64,000 nt of DNA, taken from Octopus vulgaris. Taxonomy: Eukaryota. Position 1 is the stretch's first letter. The number at the start of each line of letters is the position of its first letter. Shown here one piece after another: positions 6,839 through 7,949 of this stretch. The DNA lies in assembly GCA_951406725.2 (NCBI GenBank), contig OX597832.1:17174001-17238000 (forward strand), read 5' to 3'. The translations under genes and the position numbers were made by a program. The notes beneath the pieces were generated by a model that saw only the letters and a program-made list of their open reading frames with translations, was not told the origin of the DNA and made no database searches.

Positions 6839-7499
6839 GAGACAGACAGACAGATAGACAGACAGACAGACAGAGACAGAGAATACTTATTTGTAGCTTT
6901 TCCTGGTGAGAGAAACGATAATGTGCTTAGAGGTGTGAACGAATATCATTGATGTTGGTATTAAAGTATTGAACACACCGATATATTAACGGCTGTCTTA
7001 AGTGACAACATAGAGCAATGACAATAATATTCATTTCTAATTTTAACACAAAGCCTGCAATCACATCGACCCCCCCCCCCACTACTTAACTAGTACTTAT
7101 TTTACCCATCCCTGAAGTAGGAAAGTCAAAGTCAACCGCGGCGGAATTTCACATCAGAACATGAAGACGGACGAAATGCCGCTAAGCATTTTGTCCGGCT
7201 TGCTAACTATTCTACCACCTCACCGCCTTAGCAATAATAATATAGGTTTCATATTTTGGCTCAAGACCAAGAATTTTTGGTGAAGGTGCTAGTCAATTAT
7301 ATCGACATCAGTGTTAAACTGGTACTTAATTTATCGATCTCCGAAAGGACAAACGGGAAAGACAAGCCCCTCTCCCCCTCTCTCTCTAGCTGGATAACCA
7401 TGTACCTCCTCTACAGCGAGACAACAGTTTTTGTGTCTCTGTCTCCCTGTTACACTAACTGACAAATGATCACCAGAATGTGCAGACAGATGGAATGCC

Positions 7500-7732
7500 T
7501 ATTTCTTTACTACCCACAAGGGGCTAAACACAGAGAGGACAAACAAGAACAGACAAACGGATTAAGTCGATTATATCGACCCCAGTGCGTAACTGGTACT
7601 TAATTTATCGCTCCCGAAAGGATGAAAGACAAAGTCGACCTCGGCGGAATTTGAACTCAGAACGTAACGGCAGACGAAATACCACTAAGCATTTCGCCCG
7701 GCGTGCTAACGATTCTGCCAGCTCGCCGCCTT
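7500..7732 (-). mobile_element. Full-length SINE B monomer nested in an older SINE B
   Basis: Complete head to tail; 16-bp TSD AGACAGAYGGAATGCC at 7484-7499 and 7733-7748, itself part of an older SINE B. Confidence 0.9.
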
Positions 7733-7949
7733 AGACAGACGGAATGCCGCTAAGCATTTCACCCGACATACTACAAATTCTACCAGCTCACCACTTTAGC
7801 AATAATAATAATAATATTGATCCTTTCTACTTATCATACATGTATTCAAGTGTTACACTTGAAACAATATGAGAAAATAATGTAAAAAAATTGTGAGTTA
7901 CATCTATGGAAAGAAAACGAATATATTCATTTATAGTTCTTCATTAGAT

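Follow-up and report, generated by a model that had tools for sequence, protein, structure and literature searches.

Short interspersed elements (SINEs) are generally taken to insert almost at random, subject to loose preferences of the endonuclease. The LINEs Utopia, Keno and Tx1L are protein-guided and target small-RNA-like or other mobile sequences; in Alu replacement by gene conversion, a rare event, a young copy overwrites an old one and adds no unit; and prime editing, an engineered system, combines a nick with a primer-binding site and a homologous flap.

Published sources describe four systems that come closer to the case presented here. The tRNA-derived octopus SINEs OK, OR1 and OR2 (Ohshima and Okada 1994) are cited in PMC4758252, PMC4824008 and PMC3531059, and the available text of these three papers makes no mention of self-targeting; a SINE/LINE wave in octopus at a distance of 0.065 has been dated to 18 million years (PMC13282606). 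R1 and R2 use a fixed bottom-strand site, and target sequence that is co-transcribed with the element allows the cDNA to anneal upstream, giving precise junctions free of target site duplications (TSDs); TSD junctions arise when this upstream annealing fails, and tandem R1 arrays exist (PMC2718515). In SINEs mobilised by RTE, L2 and CR1, the 3' end of the RNA has an overlap with the target, and the first letters of the TSD correlate with it (PMC6007223). SINE-derived satellites of squamates (PMC10702118) and tandem SINEs of the blood clam (PMC11481361) have been attributed mainly to unequal recombination, and their leading units are often 3'-truncated.

The window analysed here is a stretch of 64,000 nt of Octopus vulgaris DNA (contig OX597832.1, positions 17,174,001 to 17,238,000) that contains copies of an element termed SINE B. 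We distinguish B, the young subfamily (tail …GTAGTAAAGAAATA), Bg, an older subfamily (tail …GCAATAAAGAAATA), and Y, a sister family that has nt 1-168 in common with B and carries another tail; all three labels come from this analysis. A preliminary description of the window had reported a full SINE B within an older relative, flanked by a 16-bp TSD and with its 3' end at a fixed point in the loop of the head hairpin, and both statements were borne out by the following features:

7500 to 7732, minus strand: full-length young SINE B of 233 nt, with tRNA-type head, A/B-box-like motifs and tail end AAAGAAATA, placed at nt 50 of an older copy
7733 to 7748, minus strand: 5' copy of the 16-bp TSD, corresponding to host nt 50-65
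7484 to 7499, minus strand: 3' copy of the TSD, with one mismatch to the 5' copy and a short host remainder next to it
approximately 7749 to 7797, minus strand: head of the older host, still in place and 79% identical

The host is an older, 3'-truncated copy of the family, and its nt 50, which lies at the loop edge of a strong hairpin in the predicted structure, directly adjoins the SINE B 3' end. Eight further junctions had been reported (2006, 4126, 25646, 25830, 26000, 33702, 46926 and 47078), and all were found at these positions, with the variant AAACAAATA at 26000 and the reading GATATTTC at 47078; the earlier observation on 7484 to 7800 and on the junctions is confirmed as real. The related features of the window are:

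1988 to 2023, plus strand: 36-nt junction fragment (tail and nt 50-66) inside another repeat, the sole content of the junction at 2006
3897 to 4310, plus strand: head and two units with the junction at 4126/4127, a 13-bp outer TSD and no inner TSD
25419 to 26184, plus strand: four-unit array with a 17-bp outer TSD, its units having private letters at nt 101, 102 and 163 in common
32744 to 32970, minus strand: B monomer with its own site altered (C at nt 50), unhit
33530 to 33934, minus strand: young B unit followed, from nt 50 on, by an older Y-family body with Y tail (about 18% diverged), with an outer TSD of about 14 bp and no resident head
46743 to 47310, minus strand: three-unit array with a last unit of the older subfamily (GCAAT-type) and a 16-bp outer TSD, located at the start of another old copy

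Four arrays of the window consist of a head and complete unit followed by units that run from nt 50 on, with TSDs on the outside only.

In size, copy number and TSDs, SINE B is like a tRNA-derived SINE: it is 233 nt long (less than 1 kb), interspersed, and present in more than 100 copies, with 59,934 exact tails in the 2.8-Gb genome that was searched, and its TSDs are variable (11-19 bp in 23 of 24 cases, among young non-self insertions for which a TSD was called). The B-box-like motif of its head matches a tRNA-like gene of the window, and neither Rfam (one chance hit) nor ARAGORN returned a tRNA match for the head itself. ARAGORN called a tRNA-Gln-like gene at 21038-21111 (minus strand), which may be a tRNA-derived repeat head. 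Two partial searches for a partner LINE, among 60 tail matches with altered flank and in the ORFs examined, found no LINE-like sequence upstream; by impression, the segment at about 8050-8300 resembles the 3' part of a minus-strand LINE. At the first Y-tail match, the body that carries the Y tail is SINE-like but of another type, which suggests that families exchange tails. Another locus holds Y nt 125-168, tail and TSD as a tandem repeat of 101 nt, a small SINE-derived satellite.

The exact 23-mer junction occurs 29,914 times genome-wide and not once in reversed form as a control, far above chance, the comparison that the preliminary description had asked for. Directly after the exact young 24-nt tail, GGYATTTC follows in 23,075 of the 59,934 genomic occurrences (38.5%), while 61 of 103 exact-tail ends in the first 3.7 Mb of C1 and the window continue at family nt 50, one more reads as nt 50 and one lies at nt 54; the nt-50 share therefore varies with region and with the mismatches tolerated. 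Loci were also selected by the host target followed by a new head, a pattern with 72 matches, a few of them neighbouring duplicates, of which 30 loci were examined and 29 were distinct. Although chosen only by this other end, 26 of the 29 also have the 3' end of the insert at nt 50 or 51, and about ten duplicate letters private to their host. These loci support the proposal of targeted insertion at a single nucleotide of resident copies of the family. The samples come mostly from a single chromosome, and the pooled set includes 30 loci picked by exact junction, which inflates the match over nt 50-58 in hit hosts. The feature is real and massive, and we regard self-targeting of SINE B as close to certain. 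SINE homing to a single nucleotide of its own family, as a variant of target-primed retroposition, appears to be new; no report of it was found in literature, mostly outside subscription journals, on SINEs of octopus, on self-insertion, on nested and tandem SINEs and on target specificity. As a separate observation, several non-self B insertions (C1 239487, 266869, 343659 and 473819) lie in another recurrent repeat just past a T-run, a possible second hotspot.

The hosts are diverse and old. Outside loci L251-L310, the upstream and downstream members of junctions were B-B in 69 cases, B-Y in 44, B-Bg in 22, B-truncated in 14 and B-other in nine, and Bg was upstream in nine. Rare variants number 2.95 per unit in Y bodies of arrays, 3.10 in free Y copies and 1.76 in first units, and among 81 Y-family last units no pair has three or more rare variants in common. 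Descent of all junctions from one multimeric master, which the preliminary description had named as the refuting case, is therefore ruled out, because these Y bodies arose independently and match free Y copies in age. In a sample drawn by Y tail only (93 matches), a unit is present at nt 50 in 26, at nt 17 in five and elsewhere in two, a head of their own is found in 30, 5' truncation in 23 and no aligned body in seven (by eye, three matches of the last two groups also carry a B junction); about half of the head-bearing Y copies thus have a unit at nt 50 (26 vs 30 with own head). The further expectation that the 3'-most unit is the most diverged was upheld for arrays, with the last unit more diverged than the first in 17 vs 3 of 23 (p = 0.0017), but not for B-B dimers, where this age polarity is absent (11 vs 8).

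Two other signs concern the age of the hosts. At the CpG across the cut, unhit Y monomers have CA to TG in a ratio of 17:4, compared with 141:121 at CpGs elsewhere (p = 0.02), and the ratio over all heads is 52:19 (p = 0.0007); the CA excess destroys G50, and linked Y subfamily markers are absent in the unhit Y copies. Outer TSDs, callable in only 36 of 58 Y arrays, have 36 mismatches in 360 positions of a fixed 10-nt window, compared with 23 of 190 in Y monomers and 13 of 250 in B (p = 0.034); the difference is weaker by a local-alignment measure (48/596 vs 25/425, p = 0.22), and TSDs of arrays that end in Bg units are not clearly older (7/100 vs 9/110 in Bg monomers). Taken with the independent Y conversions, this survivor signal at the CpG and the age of the outer TSDs suggest that the hosts predate the inserted unit.

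The fate of the resident head departs from the preliminary description, which had joined the cDNA to the resident head to give one head plus n units and no inner TSD. Arrays of this form exist, but in most of them the head is young and probably not the resident one. Over nt 7-48, divergence is 0.07-0.08 in Y-ended arrays (n = 58), similar to B monomers (0.07-0.09) and below Y monomers (0.11-0.15), and the B-only letter G45 occurs in 15 of 58 Y-ended array heads vs 0 of 45 Y monomers. The resident head and inner TSD are kept in only 4 of 180 arrays, the remainder having a young head. Young B-like heads with B-only letters mean that joining to a retained head is not the usual outcome, and a hidden TSD with the resident head kept is ruled out for most arrays by first units that are B-like over nt 7-66. 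The new copy is likely to overwrite the front end of the old one and, judged by head age only, replacement of the whole head would have taken place in nearly all events. At L034 and L035, the head plus TSD segment (nt 1-65) is found twice ahead of a full copy, which resembles a target-site triplication.

The reading that we prefer, with a probability of roughly 0.6, is that an RNA extension targets nt 50 and that cDNA replaces the head. A source copy that had once landed at nt 50 would be transcribed through into its host, and its RNA would acquire a 3' extension matching every relative. Such a B RNA would continue past AAAGAAAUA into GGUAUUU… and pair with the nicked target strand at nt 50, the bottom-strand nick being made by the endonuclease of a putative partner LINE with a loose xxTAT preference, and the annealed extension would prime target-primed reverse transcription. 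On reaching nt 1, the cDNA would end in sequence with homology to the 49 nt lying upstream of the nick and could displace them as a flap, adding 184 nt and a new head, without an inner TSD and with the old outer TSD of the host retained. In about 2% of cases an ordinary second-strand cut would instead leave a TSD of 10-18 bp, as at 7500. Each dimer could yield more extended RNA, a positive feedback, and dimers could later expand by unequal exchange.

Alternatively, dimers might be pre-formed as RNA or cDNA, through read-through from many TSD-nested loci or through jumps of the reverse transcriptase between two family RNAs, from nt 50 of the first to the tail of the second, and be inserted whole at fresh sites, in which case true genomic targeting would be confined to the 2% TSD class. 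Young heads, the absent inner TSD and dimers whose units share no variants (53 of 62) would all be explained in this way, and the explanation gains from two arrays that end in a truncated unit (at nt 75 and nt 78) directly flanked by the TSD and from some nested loci with two units between host-specific TSDs (e.g., L041). However, it would need very many old source loci, given the lack of sibling pairs among the 81 Y bodies, and old transcripts would have to have regenerated about half of the Y copies that bear a head; it predicts neither the A50 excess in unhit Y monomers nor outer TSDs of Y-like age, and headless nt-50 copies are rare. We consider pre-formed dimers unlikely as the general explanation. 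The rarity of headless nt-50 copies also disfavours cleavage of the RNA at the loop as a source of headless templates.

The choice of site follows the tail. Bg, which has the same GAAATA end as B and an older GCAATA tail, is at nt 50 in 709 of 22,395 cases, twelve times less often than young B, and the Y tail is found there in two matches at one place only, compared with 8,353 Y tails overall. Bg has a self-target of its own at nt 17, with 2,730 exact junctions genome-wide and the resident head absent in the cases seen (e.g., L131 and L161); among the first 100 of these junctions, the tails were GCAATA in 67, GCAGTA in 20, GTAATA in eight and young GTAGTA in five. The host reads AGAAA at nt 17, matching the AGAAA tail repeat of the older subfamily. 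Genomic targets outside the family start with GG in 13 of 24 B but only 2 of 22 Bg insertions (p = 0.0015), and the xxTAT core is common to both. Sites that are specific to the tail (B at nt 50, Bg at nt 17, Y almost absent from nt 50) would fit an RNA extension annealing to the primer strand, over a loose endonuclease preference. The pairing suggested in the preliminary description, between GAAAUA and TATTTC, is contradicted by Bg, which ends in GAAATA too, and GAAAUA could not anneal to the primer strand, both being of the same sense. When RNA-templated letters were looked for directly in the 3' TSD copy, the outcome was null (4 vs 4), and an apparent correction of 3' TSD copies toward GGTAT failed at this stricter test.

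The site might instead be set by the endonuclease of a then-active LINE (with a T|GGTATT preference) or by DNA structure, such as a hairpin or cruciform or Pol III occupancy, with the RNA tail having no guiding role. The xxTAT core of all subfamilies, the T found just before the cut in 15 of the 24 young non-self insertions and the position of the cut at the predicted loop edge are in keeping with this. The subfamilies also differ in age, so each may have relied on another enzyme, and a partner enzyme that changed over time is a possible cause of the site difference. Yet the near absence of the Y tail from nt 50 and the use of nt 17 by the older subfamily both speak for a role of the tail. Headless starts and foreign tails at nt 50 are rare, with 145 matches to a pattern that covers about one-sixth of the possible flanks, and no tail of another abundant element recurs among the 100 matches listed. 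Hairpin-arm mutations are not enriched in unhit copies, and the nicking of the hairpin that had been put forward finds no positive evidence, the 5' arm being no more mutated in unhit Y copies. Enzyme or structure as the sole determinant appears to us quite improbable.

A linked variant of the hairpin may bear on susceptibility. G45 and C50 occur together in 49 of 227 B/Bg heads (window example at 25419-25470), and nt 45 and nt 50 pair in the predicted hairpin, so that G45/C50 would keep the stem and remove the first target base. C50 is present in 2 of 95 downstream units vs 47 of 171 heads, a contrast partly inflated by the 30 loci picked by exact junction. The linked G45/C50 pair is thus a possible immunity allele.

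DNA-level exchange contributes to the longer arrays. In arrays of at least three units, inner neighbours have rare variants in common in 21 of 34 pairs, compared with about 7% at random, and the sharing is often mosaic, the 5' part coming from the downstream unit and the 3' part from the upstream unit, as unequal exchange would produce. The four-unit array at 25419-26184, in which private letters common to the units make local duplication likely, belongs to this kind. One array on C1 (about 4,676,260-4,678,120) has at least ten units of 184-187 nt with a Y body last. Internal T-run termination was considered as the origin of truncated last units and set aside as merely suggestive: 4 of 22 end at nt 102-109, none of the four with a TSD. 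Arrays of three or more units grew partly by DNA-level duplication, probably through gene conversion or crossover, and the same processes could in principle have spread dimers from existing dimers, without site-specific reverse transcription. The mosaic sharing, hit Y bodies in which B letters are slightly in excess at nt 63 and nt 65 (p of about 0.08) and one dimer with five private letters in common over nt 59-116 would be consistent with such spread. However, TSD-flanked insertions occur at the same nt 50, non-self TSD insertions have GGTAT-like targets, and Y-type sequence begins by nt 63 in most of the hit Y bodies, which places the switch at the junction. As the origin of the dimers, ectopic exchange is therefore unlikely, and we give it very little weight.

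Under the preferred reading of RNA extension and head replacement, SINE B would carry its own guide, the read-through RNA supplying both primer-binding site and homologous flap, in a natural, prime-editor-like homing to the family that has taken about half of the sister-family heads, alongside an immune variant that preserves the hairpin (U45-G50 to G45-C50); we consider the odds of this fuller picture about even. Roughly 40% or more of some 60,000 insertions of one subfamily lie at a single nucleotide of related copies, and another subfamily likewise has a site of its own within the family. Should the RNA tail be what directs insertion, the result would amount to RNA-programmed target choice by an ordinary LINE machine. 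It would also offer young SINEs a route to overwrite the promoter-bearing heads of rival families and to seed SINE-derived satellites, and age and subfamily estimates from such composite copies would mix two dates.

Like Alu replacement, insertion of SINE B would overwrite an old copy with a young one, but Alu replacement adds no unit; like Utopia, Keno and Tx1L, SINE B is aimed at small-RNA-like or other mobile sequences, but those LINEs are protein-guided; and the proposed mechanism has the nick, primer-binding site and flap of prime editing, which is engineered. Unlike a fixed Alu-like dimer, the SINE B dimers do not come from one or a few dimeric masters, their last units being of four types, star-like and older. 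Local duplication with private variants common to the units, as in satellites, is found in many arrays of at least three units but not in most dimers. Young B shares the use of one target nucleotide with site-specific non-LTR retrotransposons, but an endonuclease of its own does not set the site, because 233 nt is too short to encode one and the site varies with the tail subfamily.

Among the published systems, OK, OR1 and OR2, as described, resemble SINE B in their tRNA-type head, central domain and very high copy number. The distance of 0.065 of the octopus wave is similar to the divergence of B, if the present genome belongs to that group (PMC13282606). Microhomology in RTE-, L2- and CR1-mobilised SINEs extends over one to several bases at dispersed sites, whereas about 40% of SINE B insertions are at one nucleotide of itself (PMC6007223). 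The squamate and blood clam tandems have the leading head, repeated partial units and outer TSD of the B arrays, which differ in their complete first unit, constant junction, hosts with other tails and TSD-marked insertions (PMC10702118, PMC11481361). [quoted passage not shown] The separate steps each have precedent, in 3' microhomology, in R1/R2 cDNA annealing and in SINE tandems.
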